From a virus (Duplodnaviria; Caudoviricetes), in IMG/VR virus record IMGVR_UViG_3300031992_000055, positions 29,683 through 93,682 of that record: a DNA stretch of 64,000 nucleotides, one strand, 5' to 3'. The translations under genes and the position numbers were made by a program. The stretch's first letter is position 1; every line of letters starts with the position of its first letter. Positions 1 to 25,291 of this stretch are shown piece after piece. Below the pieces are notes generated by a model. The model searched no databases, was not told where the DNA came from, and saw only the letters and a list, made by a program, of their open reading frames with translations.

Positions 1-816
1 ATAGTTCTCCAATGAGAAATCTTTGAAGTAAGGATCTCTATTAAGGTTATCTCTTATGATTCTCCAATAAAGTCTTGCTTGAATCATATAAGACCACTGC
101 AAGAAACTTCCTTCAAAATTCCACTCAGAGTGTCCGCTTGTCTTAAGGTCTATAGGATAAATCTTCTTGGCATCATAGTCTACACAAATCAAATCAGCCA
201 TACATCTGTATCCTACACCTTCAAGAGTAGCCCTGAACTTTAATTGATAGTACCTTTGAACAGAAGAGAAAGGGTCATTGTCTGCAAAGTAATGAGAAGT
301 AGTAGGAGATTCCTTTAACGCTCTAACCATATTAAGAGCATCATTATACATATTAGTATCTACAATAGTCCTATCTGCATGAAGCAAGGCATTGAAATAC
401 TCTACTATGTTTCCTGTCTTTAAGACTTCTCTATACCTTATTTTATCCCACTTGTCTGCTTTCCAGAATCCAGCATCTTTAGCAGCAACAGAAACTACTA
501 TCTCAGGAATCTCTTCAAAGGACTGATATGGAAGGTTCATAGTAAGCAATTGATTGCATACATCTTTACCTCCATCAGTAACATTGATATCTAATACTTG
601 GAAGAGTTTATGGAATTCATCTTCTCCTCCTGTAAGAAGAGTATCAACAATGGAACCCAATGTAAGAGAAGGACTCTCTATCTTATCAAACAAGTGATTA
701 AGGCCATCATATCCTGTTTTCTCATAAGTTGACAGGATAGAATAACTAAGTTCTGGCATTGCCCTATATTGGGGCTCTGTGATTGGAAGTGCTATAGCAC
801 TTAGTTCTTTGTTCAT
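1..816 (-). CDS. PD-(D/E)XK exonuclease, RecE/ExoVIII-like (runs off window start)
   Basis: Not in ORF track. ATG at 816 (MNKELSAIALPITEPQYRAMPELSYS...); motif RCMADLICVD...IDLKTS...YMIQARLY. Confidence 0.8.
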   Translation of the reverse strand, partial: MNKELSAIALPITEPQYRAMPELSYSILSTYEKTGYDGLNHLFDKIESPSLTLGSIVDTLLTGGEDEFHKLFQVLDINVTDGGKDVCNQLLTMNLPYQSFEEIPEIVVSVAAKDAGFWKADKWDKIRYREVLKTGNIVEYFNALLHADRTIVDTNMYNDALNMVRALKESPTTSHYFADNDPFSSVQRYYQLKFRATLEGVGYRCMADLICVDYDAKKIYPIDLKTSGHSEWNFEGSFLQWSYMIQARLYWRIIRDNLNRDPYFKDFSLENY

Positions 817-1382
817 AATGTAATCTTCTTTAGTTTCCACTTATAACCATAAGCATACTCTTTTTTACATAACATAACCTGAAGAATAGCTGTAGTGCCT
901 TTACTTCCAAGACCTAAGTCATGCAAAGCCTGTTCTACAGAGTCAAACAATCTTGGCTCGCCTTGCTTGCCTCTTACAGGTTTATGAGTAACCTCAATAG
1001 CATAGCCTAGATAGGTCCAATGATTGTCTAAGGCTTGGAGAAGAGCCTTCTTGCAATTCTTGATTTGATAGAATATAGTAGAAGGCTCATTCTCCATTAG
1101 ATACTTGAATATATATTTCTTCTTGTTCTTCCATTCAGGAGTTTCGAATCCTTTACACTCAAGCATTATAGGGCCTATTACAAAATCTGGCTTATATGTT
1201 ATAGCTCTGACTTTATCCTTTTGGAAGGGACATCTAAAACTATCTAACAGGGTTATCTTTCTTTTCTCATATTCAAAAGGAATACCTAGTGTATCAAGTA
1301 CCTCAGCAGTATCAGCCTCCAGAGTACTTCGATACTTCACACCTTTGTACTCCTTTTCTGCTACTCCTTGGATTCTACTCAT
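813..1382 (-). CDS. Endonuclease, T7 endo I/Holliday-junction resolvase-like, with C-terminal HTH-like domain
   Basis: YRSTLE...YKPDFVIG..LECKG PD-(D/E)XK motif. Confidence 0.7.
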   Translation of the reverse strand: MSRIQGVAEKEYKGVKYRSTLEADTAEVLDTLGIPFEYEKRKITLLDSFRCPFQKDKVRAITYKPDFVIGPIMLECKGFETPEWKNKKKYIFKYLMENEPSTIFYQIKNCKKALLQALDNHWTYLGYAIEVTHKPVRGKQGEPRLFDSVEQALHDLGLGSKGTTAILQVMLCKKEYAYGYKWKLKKITL

Positions 1383-1716
1383 CTTTAAGTACCTTCTTCA
1401 GAATGTCAGAAATCTCCTTATTAGCTTCCTTCATCTCCTTCTCTAAGGCAGCAAGACGATTATCAAGCCTCTCCTGGTCAGCAATGATATAGTGCATCAA
1501 CTTCTCTATACACCAGTCATTACTATTACACTCACACTCTCCCTCCTCACACTCTGCTTTGTCTTCTTTGTCTACTTCATTTTCAATGATTCCAACCATT
1601 ACGCCAATCATTCCTTGAAGACCATCAATCAAATCTTCAATACTTTTAGGTTGATCTTTCTCATTCTTGATGCTGTTGTCTACACTCTTAAAGAACTCAA
1701 ACTTTTTCTTGTTCAT
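1375..1716 (-). CDS. Hypothetical coiled-coil protein
   Basis: Tightly packed in the minus-strand operon. Confidence 0.6.
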   Translation of the reverse strand: MNKKKFEFFKSVDNSIKNEKDQPKSIEDLIDGLQGMIGVMVGIIENEVDKEDKAECEEGECECNSNDWCIEKLMHYIIADQERLDNRLAALEKEMKEANKEISDILKKVLKDE

Positions 1717-1722
1717 TTGTTT

Positions 1723-2406
1723 TTAATTTATAATGTTAAACCATTTAATCCCATAGCCATTCTGACCAATGAGAATGTTATTTACCTCAGTCCAAACTTC
1801 TGAAGGCATGTCTTCATGTATTCTTGAGTAGTATGCCGGATGTCTAGTCTTTAGGATATGATTAAACTTACTGTTTATATAATCCTCATAAGACTGTGCG
1901 GCGCTGCCCATAAGGACATAGACAATACCTGTAGTCCATTCTGATAATTTTGAAAGTAAGGATTTCATAAAGGGTCTCCATAAAAGAGCATGTGCTTGAG
2001 GCTTTCCAACCTCACAAGATAGTGCTGAATTTAGCATTAGCACTCCTTGCTCCTCCCACTTCTCCAAACTGCAGTCAAAGTTAACCTCTGTCTTGTAAGT
2101 ACTAAAATCAATAACAGAGTTTCTAATAACATCTAATGAAGGAGAGTAGTCTTTCAATGGAGTATTAGGAGCATTGCCAAAGGCTATGCCTGTTGCTCTT
2201 GGTTTTCCTTTATAGAGATCAGGGTAAGGGTCTTGACCTAAAATAAGCACTCTCAGATTACTGAGAGTGCAATAGCGAAAAGCCTTAAAGATATCTTTGA
2301 TTTGTGGACATACATTATTATATGTAGTCAATCTATTTACTATCTTGTTAGCTTCCTTAAGATTAATTACCTTACTCCAATCTCCAAAGTACTCTTCTAT
2401 AGTCAT
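1723..2406 (-). CDS. ung: Uracil-DNA glycosylase (family 1)
   Basis: ILGQDPYP, GVLMLN and HPA motifs. Confidence 0.92.
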   Translation of the reverse strand: MTIEEYFGDWSKVINLKEANKIVNRLTTYNNVCPQIKDIFKAFRYCTLSNLRVLILGQDPYPDLYKGKPRATGIAFGNAPNTPLKDYSPSLDVIRNSVIDFSTYKTEVNFDCSLEKWEEQGVLMLNSALSCEVGKPQAHALLWRPFMKSLLSKLSEWTTGIVYVLMGSAAQSYEDYINSKFNHILKTRHPAYYSRIHEDMPSEVWTEVNNILIGQNGYGIKWFNIIN

Positions 2407-3467
2407 TCTTCTGCTTTTATCCTTGGATGGACAACATCTTTCTCATCAACATAAACAAATGGAAGCCTGTAGCAATAAGCAAGATATTTTTCATCATCAT
2501 AATTATTCAACTTTCTTACTAATCTTTCAGTTAAATCATAATCTGCTTGACTTATATATCTGTCATTGTAAGAAACATAGTAACCACTGTAACAGTTTAG
2601 TTTCTTCAACATATATTTTACAGCAGTACTAGTCTTAGCCTTAGCATATCTCCACGCTGTATTGTTCATTAATACAGTTAATACACTTTGTGGATACTTT
2701 GCATAATCTAATGCAGCCAGAGTCTTTAAGCCTAAATCTACAACATCATCACTTTTGCTATCCAGCATTTCAGCTATAGACACCATGTTCTCATATGTAG
2801 GAACATTACTCTCATCTCCTAATGTCTTCATTATAGTATCTTGAAATACTATCTTATCTTTAGGAAGCAGACCAATCATGTAGTCAAGAGCAAACATAGT
2901 AGCACTGTTGAATCCAGCTATAGGACCACAATATTCTAATGTGGCTTCTCTTATAGCATCATCTAAGTTTTGATGGGATATAGGAGGCACTAGATTTATC
3001 AATTTGGTACCTAGCTTAGTATTGCTTAATAGAATATCTGTTTGGGAATCTGTATAAAACATACACAAATATACCTTCTTTGCAGTGTCATTTATGAATA
3101 CTGCTGTACGCCTCCAAACCTCCACATCTGTAGTGCTTTTTCCTGGCACTATAATGGCATCTGCCATTACAGCATTTAAACACCTTTTATATTTAGATGC
3201 CAGAGAAGTTCTAGGAATAGTACAAGAAGGATGTATGTACACCTTGCTTGCACCAATAAGAGCTTGAGGATTTTCCTTTATCTCAAGTATGAAGTCATAG
3301 TCATTAATATAGCTTGCATCTATGGGATAATGCATAAAAACATTATTCCCATACCACCAACAGTATGGATTGCATGAGTGAGTAGTACTCTCAAATATGC
3401 TGTAACCTATCCTGGTTACTTGATAGTCTTCATACCCATAATACTTTGAACCTTTTGTTTTAGCCAT
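2403..3467 (-). CDS. Hypothetical protein downstream of MoxR ATPase
   Basis: 354-aa ORF overlapping the ung start (ATGA). Confidence 0.7.
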   Translation of the reverse strand: MAKTKGSKYYGYEDYQVTRIGYSIFESTTHSCNPYCWWYGNNVFMHYPIDASYINDYDFILEIKENPQALIGASKVYIHPSCTIPRTSLASKYKRCLNAVMADAIIVPGKSTTDVEVWRRTAVFINDTAKKVYLCMFYTDSQTDILLSNTKLGTKLINLVPPISHQNLDDAIREATLEYCGPIAGFNSATMFALDYMIGLLPKDKIVFQDTIMKTLGDESNVPTYENMVSIAEMLDSKSDDVVDLGLKTLAALDYAKYPQSVLTVLMNNTAWRYAKAKTSTAVKYMLKKLNCYSGYYVSYNDRYISQADYDLTERLVRKLNNYDDEKYLAYCYRLPFVYVDEKDVVHPRIKAEE

Positions 3468-3477
3468 GGTTTTGGTT

Positions 3478-5788
3478 TTAAATAATCACTTTATTCCTTA
3501 TATCTGCATTAAGAAGTAACCTGTTGCTTCTTGCAGGATACTTGGCCATTATAGTCTTAATAATATGGAATAGCAAATCATCAGAAAAGAGTTTCCTATC
3601 ATTGTTGACAAACTCAAGAAGCCTGTCTTGAACAAGATTTGATTTGCTTTCCTTCTGTGAGAAGTAATAAAGGATATAGTTTAACAACCTGATTGCAAGA
3701 ATACTTGCTATTTCAGGCTTAAATCTTTCTCCTTCATGAGTACAATCATAGATTTTGGGCTCTACTGTATCCCATTTCTGCATCAGCATATCCTTTGGAG
3801 GAATCAGTTTATCCAATCTTTGAGCAATAAAGGTAGTAAATAAAGTACCTACCACATTGTCTTTATCATTCAGAAAACATCCCTTAGAGATATTGAGAAT
3901 CAAAGCAAGAGATTTATCATCCTCCCAATTAGGTATTCCACTGATGGCCTTACAGAAAGTAGTATAGGCTCTTGGATTAATAGTCTGGATATTGTTATGC
4001 TTCTTGAATATCTCATCTCCATATAGAAGACAAAAGTTAATTGCTCTAGAATCTACTTGGTGAAACTCTGCCCAAGAAGCCCAATCTTTGACATCAAGTT
4101 TAAGATTAAAGTTAATAAACCTCGTCTTTTGAGCTGGATCCAAAGACTGAACACTAAACTCTCCATCATCAGGATTAGTAGTCAAACAGATGGTAGTATT
4201 CTTAGGAAGATTCCAAGAGATATACTTACCTTCATTTATTAACTCCATAGTAGCCTGCATAAACAGGACATTTGCCCTAGTGTAATCATCCAAACAAAGA
4301 ATACATCCATTAGGATTCTCCTCTTTAGGTAACCAAGAAGGAGTAGCATATCCCATTCTTGTGTGATTGGTAACAGTGACATTAGAAGGCACCTTTGATA
4401 ATAAGTTCTCAGGCCACCATTTGGTTTTCTGTGAGCCATCTTTGCCTGTCCATTGTAAGAGCACTTCCTTTTGAGGAAAACCACACAAATCACCTACTTC
4501 CTCTAACTGTGAGAGATTTAGTTTACAAAGAGTCATTCCTCTCTTCTCAGCAACTTGCTGTATGAGAGAAGTCTTCAGTTTTGTTATCGTAAGGCTTTTT
4601 ATCCTTACTTCTATAGATTGATTTCTCTATAGCTCAGCGTACATTTTCATCCTGTAGTTTTATACAGGAGCAGGGCACTCTTGGATGGATTATATTTATT
4701 CACCATCTACGCGTTACAATGTTCAACAGCCTTTCGCAATCTGCTGAATTATCTCGGTATTAGCATCTCAGCCTTCACCGATTTTACCCTGTAATAATCT
4801 TACCAATTACTTGATAAGACGGCAAGTCTATCATATTTGCGTTGTAAATAAATATTAGAATTTTTGTATAGTTTGGTTATCACTTCATCCGCGTTATTGC
4901 AATTACATGACATACAATAAGTATTATTTTTCCATCTTTTATCGTGCATTAAATTTGAAAACATAGGAAAAATTTCCTTAATATCATAAAGAAATTCTTT
5001 TGTTCCTATAATTTGTAAATGCAATCTTCCAGATGGAGTAAATGATATACAGCCATCACCATCTACATAGCCTCTTATGAAGTGATATTTCAAATCATCA
5101 TACTTAAATATATCTTTTGGAAACTTAAGATTTAATGATTTATTTGGGATACATCCTAAAGAAACTAATTGCTCTTTGAAATGTTTATTTGTTACGGCTA
5201 GCCTACATCTTAGAAAATTTTTGCCATTACAAGTGACAGCACTTATTTTTACAGGCGATTCATTTTTCAGAAATTTTCTATATTTCTCAAGATGGTCAGC
5301 ATCTACAGCAGAAAGTGATAATTCTACATTGTTTATTGTAGAAGACACATTTCCGTCTGCATATAAAAATCCTAACCAATATGCTTTTTCTTCTGAATCA
5401 ATACAGTCAAATACTGTATTATCAAATTTTAGAGCATTATGATAGTTAGGGGTATTTAAATGCAATTTTTTAAGAGCTCTTTGTACTGTTGTCCTACAAA
5501 CATTTAACTCTTTTGCCATTTCTTTCTTAGTATATCCTTCAGAGTTTAACCTTACTAATTTTTCTAAATTCAATATATTCGTAAATTTTTATGCAAAATT
5601 ACGAATACCAATACAAATATGAAGCTAGCTAAGGAAAACACTTAGACCACCTTACCAATACCTGCTGCTCCTTCTATACCAATGGCAATAGGAGTTAGGC
5701 CCTGTTCTTCCAATTGCTTGTTGTTGTCAAGCAAATAATTTAGTACATCAGTAAATTCACTGATGGTCATCTCATTTAAATTTGTCAT
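3478..5788 (-). CDS. MoxR-like AAA+ ATPase, spliced (exon1 5788-5654, exon2 4575-3478; ~410 aa)
   Basis: Exon1 MTNLNEM...IEGAAGIG plus exon2 KTSLIQQVAEKRG rebuilds Walker A GAAGIGKT. Walker B CLDDYTR, TTNP sensor and KTRF arginine finger lie in exon2. Confidence 0.9.
4576..5653 (-). mobile_element. Group I intron (IA-like) in MoxR ATPase Walker A
   Basis: Exon ends in U and intron ends in G. Core elements AAAATCGGTGAA, AATACCGAG, TGTAACGCGTAG, AAAATGTACGCTG; P3 AGGGT/GCCCT. Confidence 0.9.
4800..5573 (-). CDS. Intron-encoded double-motif LAGLIDADG homing endonuclease with N-terminal HTH
   Basis: YWLGFLYADG and FIRGYVDGDG motifs. Confidence 0.9.
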   Translation of the reverse strand: MNLEKLVRLNSEGYTKKEMAKELNVCRTTVQRALKKLHLNTPNYHNALKFDNTVFDCIDSEEKAYWLGFLYADGNVSSTINNVELSLSAVDADHLEKYRKFLKNESPVKISAVTCNGKNFLRCRLAVTNKHFKEQLVSLGCIPNKSLNLKFPKDIFKYDDLKYHFIRGYVDGDGCISFTPSGRLHLQIIGTKEFLYDIKEIFPMFSNLMHDKRWKNNTYCMSCNCNNADEVITKLYKNSNIYLQRKYDRLAVLSSNW

Positions 5789-5796
5789 AAGTTTTT

Positions 5797-6117
5797 CTAC
5801 TTAATTATGTCAAGATTATCTACATCCATTTTGATGCTTTTTATAGCCTGTGTAGAGACATCGAAGAATCTAACTTCCCTAAACACCTTTATAGGATATA
5901 TGCATCCTTTCTTGAATACATCATCTACCCTCTCATCAAAATAAAAAACTATACCTTCTGGAGTCTTTAAAGTCTCTTGAGAAGTGTACCACTTTCTCTT
6001 TCCTTTTCTTGAGATATTCAAGATGTCTGTCCATTCAGGGAGTTTCTTCTGTATAAATATAGAATATTCTCCTACATCTTTTACAATGGCTGTTCTATAG
6101 GATTTGTACTTCTTCAA
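5797..6117 (-). CDS. Small hypothetical protein, paralog of 6144-6422
   Basis: Shares V/IGE.SI....LP and TPE..V.YF...V motifs with its neighbour. Confidence 0.65.
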   Translation of the reverse strand: MKKYKSYRTAIVKDVGEYSIFIQKKLPEWTDILNISRKGKRKWYTSQETLKTPEGIVFYFDERVDDVFKKGCIYPIKVFREVRFFDVSTQAIKSIKMDVDNLDIIK

Positions 6118-6143
6118 TTGTTATAGCTCTATAAATTATTATG

Positions 6144-6422
6144 TTAGTAAATTACTTCCATACCTACCTTTAGCCAATCTGGTACTTTATCTTTAAAATA
6201 TACAACTACTGTTTCTGGGGTATGTACATCTTCTGCAACTGGTATTCCAAATGCAGCTTCAAATTTCATATAAGACATAATTCCATACTTTTTTCGAAAG
6301 TTAGCATCTGGATTTGGAAGCAATATTTTTCTGTTAGAGAGTGGAAGTATAAAAGATAATATTATTGAATGTTCTCCGATTTCTTCTATTTTCCATACTC
6401 TTGGTTCCTTAAGTTTATCCAT
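6144..6422 (-). CDS. Small hypothetical protein, paralog of 5797-6117
   Basis: Same shared motifs; overlaps the vWA gene stop. Confidence 0.65.
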   Translation of the reverse strand: MDKLKEPRVWKIEEIGEHSIILSFILPLSNRKILLPNPDANFRKKYGIMSYMKFEAAFGIPVAEDVHTPETVVVYFKDKVPDWLKVGMEVIY

Positions 6423-8754
6423 GTTCTTCTGGAATATAAATTACTTTACCAGGAAAATCCTGATGCATTCCATTAGATGTAATTACCCATACCATACCAG
6501 AAAGATTCCTATTAGGCAAAGAACATTCTCCATCAGTGAAATAGATAAGAGAAGCATATTCTTTCTTGTGCTTGATGTAGTATTCTACAGGTGGATTAAA
6601 GTCAGTTCCTCCTCTACCATATATCTCAGGTATTCTCTTACCATCATACTCTACTATCTTGTTAATACGGGTATCACATTCAAGAATAGTTACTCTTGCT
6701 CCTGCTTTATAGATATATTCTATTTCACCAAAGAAATCTCTGAGTTCCTCTGTTGATACTGAGCCTGAGGTATCTACTGCAACAAGAATACTGACTTTCT
6801 TCTTGTGTTGTATACCTGCTGCTCCCTCAAATCTTTTAGATTCCTTTCTTCTGGTTGTCTTTATATTTACATCATATATAGAGCCAAGGAGTCTTCTGAA
6901 ATAATGCTTCCAGTTAAATATCTCAGGCTTTTTCTCATTAAGCTTGGATATTATTTCAGATAATTCTCCTGGAATAGTTCCATTCTGTCTTGATATCTGT
7001 TCAGCAGTGCTTTTCAAGAGAGTATTCACATTGTTCACCATCAATTGCTTGGTGGCTTCTGGTACATCTCTAAAGTCTTTCCAAGAGTTATGGTCATCCA
7101 AAGGCTTCTTTCCTTCTGGTAGTCCCTTTGGATACTGACTTTCTTTCTTTTCTTGTTTATCTTCTTGCCCTCCTCCTTGAGAGCTACCTTGTCCTTGACC
7201 TTCCTGATTAGATTGTTGTTGTTGCTGTTGTTGTTGAGATTGTTGACTTTGATTTGTCAGCGCTTCATAATAATACTTAGTTCCTTGTCCATCAGGTAAG
7301 CCAATATCGGATGCTTTACATCCATCACTAGGAAGATTCTCTATGTAAGAGTTTACTTCCATGTCTGCAGCAATATTAAATATTTGCGCATTCGTAAAGG
7401 AGTTAACCATAAACATATGTTGAAAGGCAATATGACTACGATTGTTAACTAATACTTTCATATTAGACCAGACTATACCTTCATCCCGTTTTGGGATGGA
7501 CTTATTATAGTCGTTGAACGTCTTTCTTCTGCATATTTTTCAAATTTTACTTTCTTTCTTTCAAGAAATACAGTAGCATCAGAATACATATAATTATAGA
7601 ATTTATATGAGTCTTTAACGCTATAAACTACTGTATAGACATTATTGTAGTGTTTTATTTTATTGTATTTTGTTGGTACATACTGTATTAAACTTTCTAA
7701 AAATTCCCTGGAACCACTACAAACACCACTATTCAAAGTTGTATTATCTTTCCCAGGTAAATATTTATGAATACTAACACACCCATCCCCATCAAAATAC
7801 CCTCTTATAAAATGATGTACCAGTGAATTTTCAAGAGGGGGAAATTGAATAATATTTGATTTACAAGGAACGCATCCTAATTTACAAAGATCCTTGAAAA
7901 GTTTGTTACTGGTAATATGTAACTTCCAAATGTCTTTATGGTAGTGAGGATGTGTCTCTTTAAGTAAATTTCCAGTAAAACCAATATCTTTTTTAAACTG
8001 ATTTAACCAATCTCTGTCAATAGAGGACACAAACAATTGACCTGTTCCACATTTACCGATAGAAACATTTCCATCAGCAAACATTACTCCAAGCCAATAT
8101 GCTTTAATTTCAGTGTCAATCACTTCAAAAAAGGATTCATTACATTCATATAAGTAATTTTTACCTACTGCTCTAACTACATCAAACGAATGTAATACTT
8201 TAGCAACAGTTTTATCTCCCGCTTTAAAAATGCGAGCTATTTTATTAATTGCTAATTTTTGTTCTACGTATAAATTTACAATTTTTTCAATCTCTTCCCC
8301 TGAAAACTTTCTAATATACATAATTTTATATGAGTTAATATTCAATACAAAGATAGTAATTTATTTTAAAATATAGAAGAAATTTCGCTGCGGATTTTCC
8401 AATATTAACGCTTTTTACCATACCTGAATAATTAGTTCAGCCCTTTACTACATTACTATGTAAAGTTGGTACGTTAATCTCTAAGGAGGTTCCCGCAATT
8501 TAAAGTCTTTTACATTCTATATTACTATAGAAAGGAGCCTAGCTATTAAGCTCATGCTGGAGTAAGGCAATCTGTTCATCATCTGAGTAGTTTTCCCAGA
8601 ACTCCGGATTAATACATAACTCAAGATTGATGCCTTTTCTTCTTACACATAGAGTGTCTATTGTCGTAGTTATTGTCTTAGGTAGACTGAGACAAAAGAG
8701 ACCATAAAACGGACTCTTTATCAACAGCCTTTTAAAGGTCTTTTCTATTTCCAT
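6415..8754 (-). CDS. HExxH metallopeptidase-vWA protein (DUF2201-like), spliced (exon1 8754-8549, exon2 7438-6415; ~409 aa)
   Basis: Splicing restores HELSHIAFQH, followed by NIAADMEVN, a Q-rich linker, and vWA motifs DTSGS, GRGGTDF, YFTDG. Confidence 0.88.
7439..8548 (-). mobile_element. Group I intron (IB-like) in the HExxH motif
   Basis: P AAATTGCGGGAA, Q AATCCGCAGC, R GTTCAACGACTA, S AAGGTATAGTCT. P1 is exon GAGCU with IGS GGCUC (U-G wobble); P10 GCUA/UAGU; terminal G at 7439. Confidence 0.92.
7473..8321 (-). CDS. Intron-encoded double-motif LAGLIDADG homing endonuclease
   Basis: YWLGVMFADG and FIRGYFDGDG motifs. ATG 8321 preferred over TTG 8345 because a -7 promoter box lies at 8348-8355. 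The 3' end overlaps the intron core. Confidence 0.88.
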   Translation of the reverse strand: MYIRKFSGEEIEKIVNLYVEQKLAINKIARIFKAGDKTVAKVLHSFDVVRAVGKNYLYECNESFFEVIDTEIKAYWLGVMFADGNVSIGKCGTGQLFVSSIDRDWLNQFKKDIGFTGNLLKETHPHYHKDIWKLHITSNKLFKDLCKLGCVPCKSNIIQFPPLENSLVHHFIRGYFDGDGCVSIHKYLPGKDNTTLNSGVCSGSREFLESLIQYVPTKYNKIKHYNNVYTVVYSVKDSYKFYNYMYSDATVFLERKKVKFEKYAEERRSTTIISPSQNGMKV

Positions 8755-16053: not shown

Positions 16054-16314
16054 TTAATTATACCATGTGTCATGATCTAAAGAGGACCTTCTCATGAGTT
16101 CTTCATCAGCAATCATATCTTTGAAGTCCTCTTCAGCTATAGAGTCAAAGAACTCATCTTCTACAATCTGCATTTCTTCTTTATGAGTTCTATCTATAAG
16201 TTCGTTGATTTCATGAATACACTCTTCAAGCACCTCTCTTTGAGAGGGCTCATATAAATTTTCTCTTTCTCTCCACTGGGAGATGAGAGTCTGCATATCA
16301 TTTTCCCAAATCAT
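16054..16314 (-). CDS. Hypothetical acidic protein
   Basis: In operon, ATGA overlap. Confidence 0.6.
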   Translation of the reverse strand: MIWENDMQTLISQWRERENLYEPSQREVLEECIHEINELIDRTHKEEMQIVEDEFFDSIAEEDFKDMIADEELMRRSSLDHDTWYN

Positions 16315-16628
16315 AAGAACAAGGTTTTAAGTATTTTAAGAATTCTCTCCCACATTCCATTAGAGGCTTTTACACCAGCACCATTTTTACGGTTCTTGGT
16401 AGCATAGTTCTCTGTGATGTAGGAACCAATCCATACATCGTCTTTCTTAGATAGGACAGTATACCAGTGTGCTTGTACACCACTTACACTTCTGCCTATT
16501 TGTTCTGCTACAAGCATGAAGCAATGGTGGTTTCCTTTGTGTCCATACACCCTGAGAGTGTCAAGAAGGACTTTATCTTCTGCGTCAGTCCATCTTTTAA
16601 TCTGCTTTTTTGTTTTTGCTTTTTTCAT
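16311..16628 (-). CDS. Myb/SANT-like HTH DNA-binding protein
   Basis: RWTDAEDKVLL...VAEQIGRSVSGVQAHW. Confidence 0.65.
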   Translation of the reverse strand: MKKAKTKKQIKRWTDAEDKVLLDTLRVYGHKGNHHCFMLVAEQIGRSVSGVQAHWYTVLSKKDDVWIGSYITENYATKNRKNGAGVKASNGMWERILKILKTLFL

Positions 16629-22250: not shown

Positions 22251-22614
22251 CAGTGCTACCTTTTGACTTTTTCTTAGGAGTTGATTCTACAGAACCTAAA
22301 TACTTTATCATCTGCATCTGCAAAGTACTTAATTGACTTTTGAGACTATCATTTTCTTTTTGCAAGTATTCTATCTTTTCATTGAGAGATAGTATAGTCT
22401 CTTCAAATCTTTGCTTTTGTGCAGCCATTGATTCTTCCATTGTCTTTTTATATAATTCAAATGAAGCATTTTGATTCTCAATATGCTGACTTTCTACTTC
22501 TGTATTATACTTTCTTCTTGTGAATATAAATGTTACCCAACTTGAGACTGTAGTACAGAACAGTCCCACTAATGCTATAATAATTTCTGCTCCCATCTCT
22601 TTTAGTTTTTGCAA
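22231..22614 (-). CDS. Holin-like membrane protein
   Basis: N-terminal TM segment plus coiled coil, directly upstream of the endolysin. Confidence 0.6.
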   Translation of the reverse strand: MQKLKEMGAEIIIALVGLFCTTVSSWVTFIFTRRKYNTEVESQHIENQNASFELYKKTMEESMAAQKQRFEETILSLNEKIEYLQKENDSLKSQLSTLQMQMIKYLGSVESTPKKKSKGSTDGDIDK

Positions 22615-22736: not shown

Positions 22737-23339
22737 ATGAAGCAGATAGTATTTATATTGGTGTTTATTCTGGGGTTAGCTCTAGTCCTTGCTGTTAAGC
22801 AGATAGAGATACTTGATAAGAAGTGGAAAGATGCCACTATAAACATGAAGGCATATAGTGCTCAGTTAGATGCAAGCAAGAAGGATAATGTAGCATTTCA
22901 AATGACTATAGATCAGTTGAGATACTATGGAGATTCCATCATGAGGGAACTTGATAAGACTAAGAAGGAACTCAATGTTAAGGATAAAAACACTATAGCT
23001 CTTCAGTATGTAGGTTCTACATTTACTAAGAGTGATACTGTCATGTTAAGAGATACTGTATTCAAGGAACCTGCTTTTGCTTTAGATACTACTCTTGAAG
23101 ATCAGTGGTATTCTATGAGAATAGGCCTTAGTTATCCTTCTACTGTAGCTGTATCTCCTAGATTCCATAGTGAGAAGCATATTATAGTATCCTCTAAGAA
23201 GGAAACAGTGAATCCTCCTAAGAAGTTTTTTCTTTTAAGGTGGTTTCAGAAGAAGCATAGGGTAGTCAAGGTAGATGTTATAGAGAAGAATCCTTATGTT
23301 AAGGATGAAGAGAATACGTATATTCACATAGTCAAATGA
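22737..23339 (+). CDS. Spanin-like protein
   Basis: N-terminal TM, coiled coil, C-terminal KKFFLLRWF motif; next to the lysis genes. Confidence 0.6.
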   Translation: MKQIVFILVFILGLALVLAVKQIEILDKKWKDATINMKAYSAQLDASKKDNVAFQMTIDQLRYYGDSIMRELDKTKKELNVKDKNTIALQYVGSTFTKSDTVMLRDTVFKEPAFALDTTLEDQWYSMRIGLSYPSTVAVSPRFHSEKHIIVSSKKETVNPPKKFFLLRWFQKKHRVVKVDVIEKNPYVKDEENTYIHIVK

Positions 23340-23380: not shown

Positions 23381-24562
23381 TTAACTTGTTTCGTGTGTCA
23401 TTTTTTCTCCCTTGCTTGTGAAAGTGGGGGAGTTTTTTATTGCCTTCACTACAGTCTCATCTAACAGTTTAGCATATATTTGCTCTGTTATCCTTGTAGA
23501 TGAATGTCCGCATATTCTTGCTATTATCTTCATATCTATACCTTCATTCAATAACATAGTTGCTCCTGTGTGTCTAGCCCAATGAGAGCTTATTGGTTTA
23601 TCTACTCCTGAAGCCTGGGCAACTACTTTGAGATACTCATTGTACTTGACATTGCTTATGATAGGTAATGTTTGATTATACTTATCTAGTATTCTTAAGG
23701 CGTCTTGTACTAAGGGTATAGTGAAAGGTTTATCAGTCTTCTTTCTTTTCCCTATGTATACCTTCGTCCCCTCTAACTCTGTTACATCATTATATTTAAA
23801 TCTTACAAGGTCAGAATAGGATAAACAAGTATAGGTTTGGAATATAAATAAATCTCTTACTCTCTCAAGGCACTTAGTTGGTAATATAGAAGTCTTTATC
23901 TTGTAGAACTCTTCTTCAGTCAGGTATCTTGATGTGTGAATGTTCTTGCCTTTATTGATGTTTACCCAGTTATATGGATTCTTATTAAGTAAACCATCTT
24001 TAAGGGCATCAAGAATAAAAGAGTTCAAGAACCTGTGATAATTGTTCCATTTACTATATATCTTCATTTCTTTACTTTCTAAATATCTATCATAGGCAAT
24101 TATGTTAATCTCATTGACATCTTCAAAGTATATAATTTTTCCCCACTCTTCAAAGAATCTAAGGAACCTATTATATCTTTCTTGGCTATCTTTGGACTTT
24201 CCATATTTCCTTATCTCTGCTCTAGTCTTACAGAAAGCCAGGAAAGAAATGTTCTTTTCCTTCAAGAGTTCCATTCTTCTGGGAATATCAGATAGGGTAA
24301 TATTGCCTTCTTCAGACATTGTTAAGAGAACTTGTCTGATCTTGGATAGTAAAGACTCTATTAAGTCATTATACTTAGAAGCATCTGGAGTATTTATAAC
24401 TTTATCTTTTCTCCATTGATTAGGATATACTCTGATGCCTGTACTCAGATACTTTTGTTTGTAATTATAGGTTATACGTATTTCTATGGTAGCCTTTTTC
24501 TTTGAGGAGGCTTTCTTGTATCTGTCATAGATAAGACAGATTTGAGGAAAATGGTTAATCAT
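23381..24562 (-). CDS. int: Tyrosine integrase (Bacteroidota type)
   Basis: Arm-binding N-terminus (IEIRITYN..YLSTGI), TCLSYSDL, KKT, HWARHT, GHSS..TEQIYA. Confidence 0.93.
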   Translation of the reverse strand: MINHFPQICLIYDRYKKASSKKKATIEIRITYNYKQKYLSTGIRVYPNQWRKDKVINTPDASKYNDLIESLLSKIRQVLLTMSEEGNITLSDIPRRMELLKEKNISFLAFCKTRAEIRKYGKSKDSQERYNRFLRFFEEWGKIIYFEDVNEINIIAYDRYLESKEMKIYSKWNNYHRFLNSFILDALKDGLLNKNPYNWVNINKGKNIHTSRYLTEEEFYKIKTSILPTKCLERVRDLFIFQTYTCLSYSDLVRFKYNDVTELEGTKVYIGKRKKTDKPFTIPLVQDALRILDKYNQTLPIISNVKYNEYLKVVAQASGVDKPISSHWARHTGATMLLNEGIDMKIIARICGHSSTRITEQIYAKLLDETVVKAIKNSPTFTSKGEKMTHETS

Positions 24563-24669
24563 TGTTAAATGTAATTGGTAAGGTTAAGTGTCAGCAGTGG
24601 TAGTGTAAATATGTAATAAAAGAAAAGTATACTATAATAAATGTGTATATGATAATATATGCCAATGAC

Positions 24670-24700
24670 CAAAAAAGAGAGCCATAGAAGGCTCTCTTTT
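24670..24700 (-). terminator. Terminator following the att-embedded tRNA 3' end
   Basis: AAAAGAGAGCC/GGCTCTCTTTT hairpin plus U tract. Confidence 0.75.
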
Positions 24701-24708
24701 AGATTTTG

Positions 24709-24751
24709 CGGAAGGTGAGGGATTCAAACCCCCGATACCCGAAAGGGGTAT
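24709..24751 (-). other. attP candidate: 3' half of a tRNA-Ser
   Basis: ATACCCCTTTCGGGTAT (variable arm), CGGGGGTTTGAATCCCTC (T arm), ACCTTCCG (acceptor, G73). No 5' half; ~150 nt upstream of int. Confidence 0.8.
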
Positions 24752-24931
24752 ATTTTATTGAGAACCAATTGCTTATATAATTCTTAATAAAATGATACTA
24801 CGGAGGATATAATGAATACATAATAAATAGGTTTAAAAGGATTATAATAGATGGTAAAGCAAAGATAAATAATCCATATGAAACTTCCAAGGTATAATTT
24901 TAAAAAATATTGTATTTTTTTAAGTTGAAAA

Positions 24932-24963
24932 TTTGGAAGTATAAATGGAAATGTATATCTTTG
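24932..24963 (+). promoter_or_regulatory. Canonical Bacteroidota sigma70 promoter
   Basis: TTTG-N20-TATCTTTG; a divergent CTTG-N20-TATCTTTG lies on the minus strand at 24891-24860. Confidence 0.7.
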
Positions 24964-25090: not shown

Positions 25091-25291
25091 ATGAAGAAGT
25101 TTCCAACAAGTGAAAAAGAGTGGCAGGCAGAAAGTGATGCCAGGACTCTAGCAGAATACCAAAAGATAATGGGAGATAAAGATAGAATGAGCAGGGCTCT
25201 TAAAATTGCTAAAAGGGAAGCTGCTCGTTATAGGGAGCAGGCTGATGCTATGGATAAAGTTGTAGGAAGTAGACCCAGAAGAAAAAAGTAA
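25091..25291 (+). CDS. Small basic protein
   Basis: WQAESDARTL motif; first rightward gene after the promoter. Confidence 0.65.
   Translation: MKKFPTSEKEWQAESDARTLAEYQKIMGDKDRMSRALKIAKREAARYREQADAMDKVVGSRPRRKK

Follow-up and report, generated by a model that had tools for sequence, protein, structure and literature searches.

A crAss-like phage with a probable integration module for the tRNA-Ser(CGA) gene of Prevotella

Introduction

The integrases IntDOT of CTnDOT, IntN1 of NBU1 and IntN2 of NBU2, all from Bacteroides, are built of three domains, namely an arm-binding domain (PF17293), a SAM-like domain and a catalytic domain. NBU1 inserts at the 3' end of a tRNA-Leu gene and NBU2 at that of a tRNA-Ser gene, and the cores of these elements are short. 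In lambda, P4, HP1 and P22, which exemplify the POP' organization of attP and the targeting of tRNA genes, the arm sites flank the core, the core corresponds to the 3' part of the tRNA and the int gene lies beside attP. Here we report the analysis of a 64,000-nt stretch of viral DNA (hereafter the window), which corresponds to bases 29683-93682 of the 93,682-bp IMG/VR virus record IMGVR_UViG_3300031992_000055 (Duplodnaviria; Caudoviricetes) and in which an intact integrase gene of the three-domain build lies next to a copy of the 3' part of a Prevotella tRNA-Ser gene. The original prediction for this locus was of true lysogeny in a crAss-like phage.

The long persistence of cultured crAss-like phages has been attributed to carrier states, to phase variation or to existence in a plasmid-like form. 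Phages of the crAss001 type are reported to be incapable of lysogeny (PMC8375218), and lysogeny in Crassvirales has been considered very rare (PMC10983915). Integrase annotations are reported mainly in Intestiviridae and the Zeta group, rarely in Steigviridae (PMC13503771), and a dozen crAss-like prophages have been found in metagenome-assembled genomes (MAGs) from pigs (PMC12454387). In the literature that we searched, integrase annotations and 'crAss-like prophages' appear only in surveys (PMC13503771, PMC12454387), and none of the papers describes the rumen lineage considered here or its att sites.

The present locus has in common with IntDOT, IntN1 and IntN2 the three-domain build and a Bacteroidota host. 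Unlike CTnDOT and the NBU elements, which are conjugative or mobilisable, the module is carried by a tailed Crassvirales phage of ~100 kb, and at 46 nt, or up to 96, its common core is long with respect to the short cores of the NBU elements. As in lambda, P4, HP1 and P22, the core is identical to the 3' part of a tRNA gene, which would be rebuilt upon insertion, and int is next to attP; repeats that may be arm sites lie on both sides of the core. The locus departs from those phages in that neither Xis or another recombination directionality factor (RDF) nor a CI/Cro pair was recognized, in that the phage carries a terminator for the rebuilt tRNA and in that two of its relatives (L153 and L160, see below) carry a whole downstream tRNA. 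We estimate at about 85% the probability that attP and integrase constitute here a working module, belonging to a temperate crAss phage that is Steigviridae-like and infects rumen Prevotella, its mechanism being the classical one of a heterobivalent tyrosine integrase that targets the 3' end of a tRNA gene. This branch of a phage group supposed to be non-integrating very probably forms prophages.

A Related Phage Recovered Free and Integrated

Integration was documented in a phage related to that of the window (integrase 59%, capsid protein 69% and large terminase 72% identical), for which all four attachment sites were recovered from independent assemblies, each junction coming from a different contig. 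The attP lies on contig L152 (JGI 3300011005), which joins at 100% identity both ends of the IMG/VR record G408, a sequence of 117,540 bp classed as provirus and 100% complete according to CheckV. G408 terminates in 439 bp of GC-rich host DNA encoding a lipoprotein, and this junction is the attR; a look-up of the lipoprotein retrieved a second attR on contig L289 (148,409 bp), in which phage genes give way to host genes. The attL was found by exact-protein look-up of the integrase on contig L284 (148,372 bp; JGI 3300011008), where 10 kb of ordinary bacterial genes are followed by an intact tRNA-Ser(CGA), 166 bp, int and phage genes. The near-equal sizes of L284 and L289 fit one prophage of ~117 kb. 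The empty attB is present in five assemblies (L286-L288, L290 and L291), in which the left and right host flanks are adjacent around the same tRNA-Ser.

Once aligned, the four sites read B-core-B', P-core-P', B-core-P' and P-core-B', with the flanks swapping exactly across a common core of 33 nt that extends from the T-loop to 10 nt past the end of the tRNA. This is conservative site-specific recombination, and both integration and excision are real for a phage with the same anatomy as that of the window. The original prediction had proposed a search for attL/attR junctions as its check: none was found for the phage of the window itself, and the complete set of attB, attP, attL and attR was found for this relative of the same architecture.

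The Integrase and Its attP

The 93.7-kb record containing the window is linear, with a CheckV completeness of 91%. Its major capsid protein is ~70% identical, over the full length, to those of crAss001, IAS virus, cr85_1 and the PhiCrAssBcn isolates, and its portal (E 8e-148), large terminase (E 4e-107) and capsid protein (E 2e-105) match the PHROGs families of portal, large terminase and major head proteins. A giant open reading frame (ORF) of >3139 aa lies at the left end of the record, and the genes form two opposed blocks, leftward to the left of window position 22614 and rightward to the right of 25091, with the integrase region in between. Possessing a crAss-type capsid protein, a large terminase and a portal, two opposed gene blocks and a size in line with ~90-105 kb, the phage can be assigned to Crassvirales.

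On one side the integrase region is flanked by a DUF5675 protein and a homologue of the crAss 'lysis regulatory protein', on the other by a homologue of the crAss zinc-finger 'transcription factor'. The lysis regulator and the zinc-finger protein both have homologues in cultured Steigviridae (crAss001, DAC15/DAC17, PhiCrAssBcn), the phages with the capsid identity of ~70% mentioned above. Since phage genes lie on both sides of the site, we are therefore dealing with the free-phage form, attP, as had been predicted. Neither these nor any other named crAss phage among the GenBank phage records has a homologue of the integrase at E<=1e-10, and megablast of the integrase region against GenBank phages gave no match. 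(The flanking genes might have been expected to be adjacent in crAss phages devoid of int; in cr85_1 they are 13 kb apart, and a simple insertion picture was rejected.)

The integrase was correctly predicted to be full length. Its three Pfam matches are all above the respective cut-offs: Arm-DNA-bind_5 (PF17293, E 1.1e-7, 32.7 bits for a cut-off of 22.6), Phage_int_SAM_5 (PF13102, E 2e-7, 31.7 bits for a cut-off of 22.3) and Phage_integrase (PF00589, E 4.5e-16). The catalytic set comprises S248 at the position of Arg-I, R273 as the alternative Arg, K275, H327, R330, H353 and Y363, the last five residues being invariant across the integrase and 28 aligned homologues. Arg-I and the alternative Arg are mutually exclusive in these 29 sequences, 25 of which combine S or A at position 248 with R273 while four combine R248 with Q273; the four form one clade and reflect, therefore, a single evolutionary event. 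The original prediction had noticed the Ser in the motif TCLSYSD and compared it with IntDOT, a comparison that agrees with published data: in the IntCTnDOT subgroup, the first catalytic Arg of IntDOT is missing, is dispensable and is replaced by a downstream Arg, whereas the NBU integrases retain it (PMC8138268). The S248/R273 pattern fits these two alternative Arg positions (PMC8138268).

The best matches in 50,697 GenBank phage records are the integrases of LoVEphage, BI-TP1 and PV4-TP1, with 35% identity over 94% of the protein. These phages are described as temperate and infect Bacteroidales (Bacteroides/Phocaeicola); they are, however, unrelated phages of ~71 kb that are not crAss-like, and identity at this level indicates a different subfamily. 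NCBIfam models gave sub-threshold Xer and integron matches only. On the basis of its domains and catalytic pattern we place the integrase with the IntCTnDOT/NBU type of Bacteroidota, and it looks active. Closer homologues, 50-64% identical, are found in crAss-like contigs and beside tRNA-Ser genes of Prevotella chromosomes. In particular, about 30 rumen Prevotella genomes have integrases 50-58% identical, and nearly always an intact tRNA-Ser gene (CGA, TGA or GGA) precedes the integrase on its strand at a distance of 250-350 bp. This layout is the integrated counterpart of the phage layout, and the cargo of those chromosomal elements is not crAss-like.

The common core (table 1) lies 145 nt upstream of the integrase gene on the same strand. 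It begins right after the anticodon stem and spans the variable arm, the T arm and the 3' acceptor strand plus one base past the 3' end of the tRNA; the tRNA-Ser half originally placed at 24709-24751 was the right site with a slightly short span. ARAGORN calls no tRNA beside the integrase, and the only Rfam match on the core is a plastid element, presumably antisense to trnS. The hairpin next to the core folds at -19.4 kcal/mol (z -3.8), with 0/200 shuffles as stable, in agreement with the replacement terminator of the original prediction; a simple terminator scan missed it because its T-run is partly within the stem. After integration, this hairpin would terminate the rebuilt tRNA-Ser.

Around the core there are six same-strand candidate copies of TYTATTATR (minus-strand consensus), a count that 0/40 shuffles reach in a stretch of 450 nt, and their positions match those of the stronger repeats in relatives. 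The repeats of the P' arm sit 58, 79 and ~98 nt upstream of the int ATG; most relatives show the 58/79 spacing as well, with a motif peculiar to each phage. The promoter that had been predicted at 24891-24860, across att from int, corresponds to a Bacteroidota -7 box, a match to the motif only; most relatives likewise have a single int-strand TAnnTTTG upstream of the core. (A sigma-70 promoter scan, which is uninformative for Bacteroidota, gave 12 matches vs 9.6 expected.) The corollary that this promoter would be detached upon integration does not by itself mean that int is off, for after integration the host tRNA promoter replaces the attP promoter upstream of int. In the integrated relative L143, described below, the host tRNA promoter holds the equivalent place.

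Table 1. Features of the integrase-attP region and of its surroundings (window coordinates)
Feature	Position	Strand	Description
Tyrosine integrase gene	23381..24562	-	393 aa, intact; arm-binding, SAM-like core-binding and catalytic domains
P' arm and int leader	24563..24656	-	Candidate arm-type repeats 24612-24621, 24633-24642 and 24651-24660
Extended block, core plus terminator	24657..24752	-	96/96 nt identical to metagenome contig L194 with intact tRNA-Ser(CGA)
Hairpin terminator	24673..24700	-	Immediately follows the tRNA fragment; fully paired 11-bp stem (11/11, inverted repeat I8), T-run
attP common core	24707..24752	-	Identical to the final 46 nt of Prevotella tRNA-Ser(CGA)
P arm	24753..24867	-	Candidate arm-type repeats 24808-24817, 24819-24828 and 24843-24852; -7 box 24860-24867
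Bacteroidota -7 box TATCTTTG (TAnnTTTG)	24867-24860	-	Motif match; points to core and int, just upstream of the P-arm repeats
Divergent -7 box TATCTTTG	24956..24963	+	Motif match; faces the rightward operon starting at 25091

Host tRNA Genes and the Proposed Mechanism

A 33-nt seed of the core was found in 109 species-representative genomes. With few exceptions these bear the name Prevotella or Prevotellaceae, and many come from the rumen or other ruminant guts. In 61 of these genomes the match covers the full 46/46 nt and the identity stops exactly at the anticodon stem; tRNA-Ser(CGA) was called at all of the 20 loci scanned. The matching host tRNA to which the original prediction had pointed is therewith identified in Prevotella.

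A longer identity, that of the extended block in table 1, was found in the metagenome contig ODAI011907223.1 (L194, region 1-7865). Its host side has a G+C content (GC) of 55-60%, and directly downstream of the tRNA-Ser(CGA) there is an island with GC of 36-45%, the first 50 nt of which after the tRNA are the same as the P' arm of the phage. The island encodes a type III restriction methylase, a Res helicase, an SMC-like AAA protein and a HerA/FtsK-like ATPase, and no integrase is present in the 7.8 kb seen. We rejected L194 as the attL of this phage, because after the 96 shared nt it continues into this restriction/ATPase island. Given that it lacks an integrase and that native Prevotella terminators downstream of tRNA-Ser(CGA) are very similar to that of the phage, L194 is therefore read as a probable attB rather than as a junction, and its 96-nt block is the probable attB of the natural host.

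In the mechanism that we propose, the integrase, a tyrosine recombinase of the IntCTnDOT/NBU type, would act heterobivalently. The repeated arm sites on either side of the core would be bound by its N-terminal domain. Its core-binding and catalytic domains would bring the tRNA-like core of 46 bp together with the matching 3' part of the tRNA-Ser(CGA) gene in the host, to which it is identical, and the ~100-kb genome would then be inserted by two strand exchanges in a fixed order. The resulting attL would consist of an intact tRNA-Ser, with 3' half and terminator both phage-borne, followed by int, and in attR the P arm would be joined by the 3' half displaced from the host gene. The host is named as a Prevotella with this variant of tRNA-Ser(CGA). 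The analysis provides a concrete attP/attB pair for the phage of the window and the full attB/attP/attL/attR set for its relative, which together show a Steigviridae-like branch in ruminants using ordinary site-specific integration.

The Same Module in Other crAss-like Phages

About 20 rumen crAss-like contigs of IMG/VR share crAss genes with the window and have an orthologous integrase at the same place, in the order tRNA 3' fragment, hairpin and int. All 20 full-length crAss integrases are open (376-407 aa) with the catalytic residues kept. A FastTree tree places them in what is essentially one clade, the apparent sister of which is made up of the integrases of Prevotella islands. Wherever a match was found, the tRNA 3' fragment measures 23-46 nt, lies ~100-200 nt upstream of int and always ends at the tRNA 3' end. 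The fragments derive from Ser(CGA), Ser(TGA), Ser(GGA), Cys and Lys tRNAs, and other relatives carry a whole tRNA-Glu, tRNA-Lys or tRNA-Val. A hairpin is found at this place in every relative, with a different sequence each time. Each phage has, moreover, its own 9-mer, repeated on the same strand at fixed distances upstream of the start codon of int (~265/254 nt; ~90/79/58 nt), and in 9/15 phages, including that of the window, 0/40 shuffles reach the observed count. Such a pattern is that expected of arm-type sites co-evolving with the arm-binding domain.

Two relatives have a more elaborate site, the attP of L153 (1-170) and L160 (1-120) consisting of a tRNA-Ser(GCT) 3' fragment followed by a whole tRNA-Glu(CTC). 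The arrangement copies the host array Ser(GCT)-Glu(CTC)-Ser(CGA) of the Prevotella locus L007, and the phage seems to bring a replacement for the downstream co-transcribed tRNA. We considered these two as integrated forms and rejected the possibility, since there is no second copy at the far end of the 99-kb record and the upstream tRNA-Ser(GCT) of L153 is only a fragment, which indicates attP. In another relative (G407), a 123-kb genome with direct terminal repeats and 100% completeness, int and attP are internal, so that the module belongs to a full phage genome of the packaged kind.

A further junction between host and crAss-like DNA was found at the tRNA-Arg(TCT) gene of contig L143, which reads genes for a fucosidase, MatE and LptD (GC 48%), the tRNA-Arg(TCT), an integrase and six genes homologous to those of the window (GC 38%) up to the contig end. 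This is a Bacteroidales-type contig binned as Lachnospiraceae, in which the integrase is split by a frameshift (L143:10001-11150) and the gene order is scrambled, and the element is probably either a prophage in decay or an artefact of assembly. The genome bin to which L143 belongs did not yield the capsid protein, nor did four Prevotella genomes.

Variations were noticed in the large terminase of several relatives. The gene matches in two pieces ~1.1 kb apart in L159 (1267-4701), L161 (1268-4702) and L181 (2982-6431), and that of the provirus G408 (C1:12427-14682) has one in-frame TAG; an intron, an intein, the insertion of a homing endonuclease or stop-codon recoding are possible causes.

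Evidence against Lysogeny and Alternative Explanations

Several results weigh against the reading of the locus as the working module of a temperate phage. The relative caught in integrated form has an integrase that is only 59% identical to the one studied here, and that of L143 (61% identical) is frameshifted. The arm-like repeats become marginal in a longer att stretch of 528 nt, in which 4/60 shuffles equal them. The phage arms are present in 0/109 of the genome loci with the core seed, neither an attL nor a second P-arm junction of this phage was found in IMG/VR, and a metagenome scan for the predicted attL gave a single match, L194, which is devoid of integrase; the integrated form of this phage, attL together with attR, was thus not found in these searches. 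(The exact integrase, which is present in SRR9006730, also occurs on two Logan contigs of 5-10 kb, one of which begins inside the core and is uninformative, as expected of a repeat shared with the host.) A crAss-type capsid gene is present in only 1 of the 401 Prevotella species genomes sampled, and it is distant (27% identical); stable lysogens therefore look rare.

The single capsid match is a 513-aa open frame at G242:C203:23172-24410 (L198), which may belong to a distant crAss-like prophage or to a mis-binned phage contig. A search of the species genomes with the large terminase returned one 3-kb contig.

The last point on this side concerns the control of lysogeny. No member of the CI, Cro, Xis, Bro or KilA families was found among the 74 small ORFs of the whole 93.7-kb record by a search for HTH_3, Peptidase_S24, Xis/HTH_17, Bro and KilA at E<=0.001, the sensitivity of which is limited for small, fast-evolving proteins. 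Near int, in particular, neither a repressor nor an excisionase (RDF) family was recognized, and the original prediction had rightly noted that no CI-like repressor is visible there. Other DNA-binding matches in small ORFs of the record are weak ones to winged-helix or helix-turn-helix families (HTH_29, HTH_7 and HTH_11). Among the early genes, a Myb-like DNA-binding protein of 105 aa (window 16311-16628, minus strand; Pfam E 2e-5) is one of the few recognizable DNA-binding regulators in the record and a candidate for the control of lysogeny.

These results fit an alternative that we regard as possible but less likely than not, namely that the module does recombine but integration is rare or short-lived, the phage being mainly lytic or in a carrier state like the cultured crAss phages and using the chromosome as an occasional refuge, with no repressor-based immunity. 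Besides the lack of an integrated copy and the near absence of crAss-type capsid genes from the Prevotella genomes, the lack of repressor and excisionase families among the small ORFs, which extends to anti-repressors, speaks for it. On the other hand, the related prophage was assembled whole (~117 kb, CheckV 100%) within 148-kb host contigs in at least two samples, which needs a sizeable population of lysogens; an intact integrase and arm sites that co-vary across a diverse clade imply sustained selection; and species-representative MAGs, in which the capsid gene was sought, are a poor sample for prophages.

It appears very improbable that the cassette has lost its function, be it as an inactive relic or as a small mobile element of unrelated origin that came to rest in the phage. 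The integrase family is common to non-crAss islands and prophages of Prevotella, and was thus acquired horizontally at some point, and the frameshift in L143 would also suit a relic. The cassette consists, however, of int and att only, with no other cargo, and occupies the same place in ~20 divergent phages whose full-length integrases are all open, catalytically complete and essentially of one clade. The sequences of core, hairpin and arm repeats diverge, but none of the three elements is lost, and the tRNA copy itself is undecayed (46/46 nt). The remnant of an unrelated mobile element, against which the original prediction had warned, is hardly compatible with these findings.

We give practically no credit to the idea that the tRNA-like stretch is an assembly chimera or a chance similarity and that the integrase has another role, such as the resolution of genome multimers: short repeats shared by phage and host can indeed break or mis-join assembly graphs, and one Logan contig with the exact integrase begins in the core, but the fragment has phage DNA on both sides within the 93.7-kb record, many relatives assembled independently have this arrangement too, the Xer models of NCBIfam score 65 bits for a cut-off of 330, and to our knowledge Xer-type resolvases have no arm-binding domain and are not found beside tRNA halves.

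We retain, then, the reading of the locus as a working integration module of a temperate phage, and the ability of this phage to integrate is very likely. We infer that its own module is active and, because no repressor or excisionase was recognized, we likewise infer whatever maintains and ends lysogeny; of the true lysogeny originally predicted, the integration step is supported, and maintenance and induction are presumed. A wider proposal is offered tentatively, with less confidence than an even chance would warrant: the whole rumen lineage of Steigviridae-like phages might be truly temperate, retarget its integrase among at least eight tRNA genes through co-evolving core and arm sites, and control lysogeny without recognizable CI, Cro or Xis. 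Control might perhaps be exerted by the conserved promoter that faces int across attP, which would be swapped for the host tRNA promoter on insertion. If true, this would amount to a lysis-lysogeny switch of a new kind, in an order that ranks among the most abundant of the gut phages. The pairs of integrase and attP aimed at different tRNA genes might in time also be leads for genetic tools in Prevotella.

Neighboring Genes

Some features around the module were observed in addition. A terminator-like hairpin for the rightward lysis-regulator gene (22737-23339) is located at 23407-23432 on the plus strand and thereby falls within the 3' end of the integrase coding sequence, which runs in the opposite direction. 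On the other side, the first gene of the rightward block (25091-25291, plus strand) encodes a conserved helical protein of 65-75 aa with the motif WQAE.DA..MA.YQEI, whose family has 0 matches in GenBank phages and 80 loci in IMG/VR, with or without an integrase. We rejected it as an excisionase or lysogeny gene, since an integrase adjoins it in 23 of the 80 loci and clearly does not in 34. In 23 loci the gene lies less than 2 kb from a contig end, which hints that genome or assembly ends fall there.

Five other crAss-like contigs of IMG/VR (L209, L211, L215, L247 and L248) have in this place an integrase of a different family (25-28% identical), immediately upstream of the small conserved gene with which the rightward operon begins. 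The boundary between the modules seems, on this comparison, to be a recurrent landing site for integrase cassettes.

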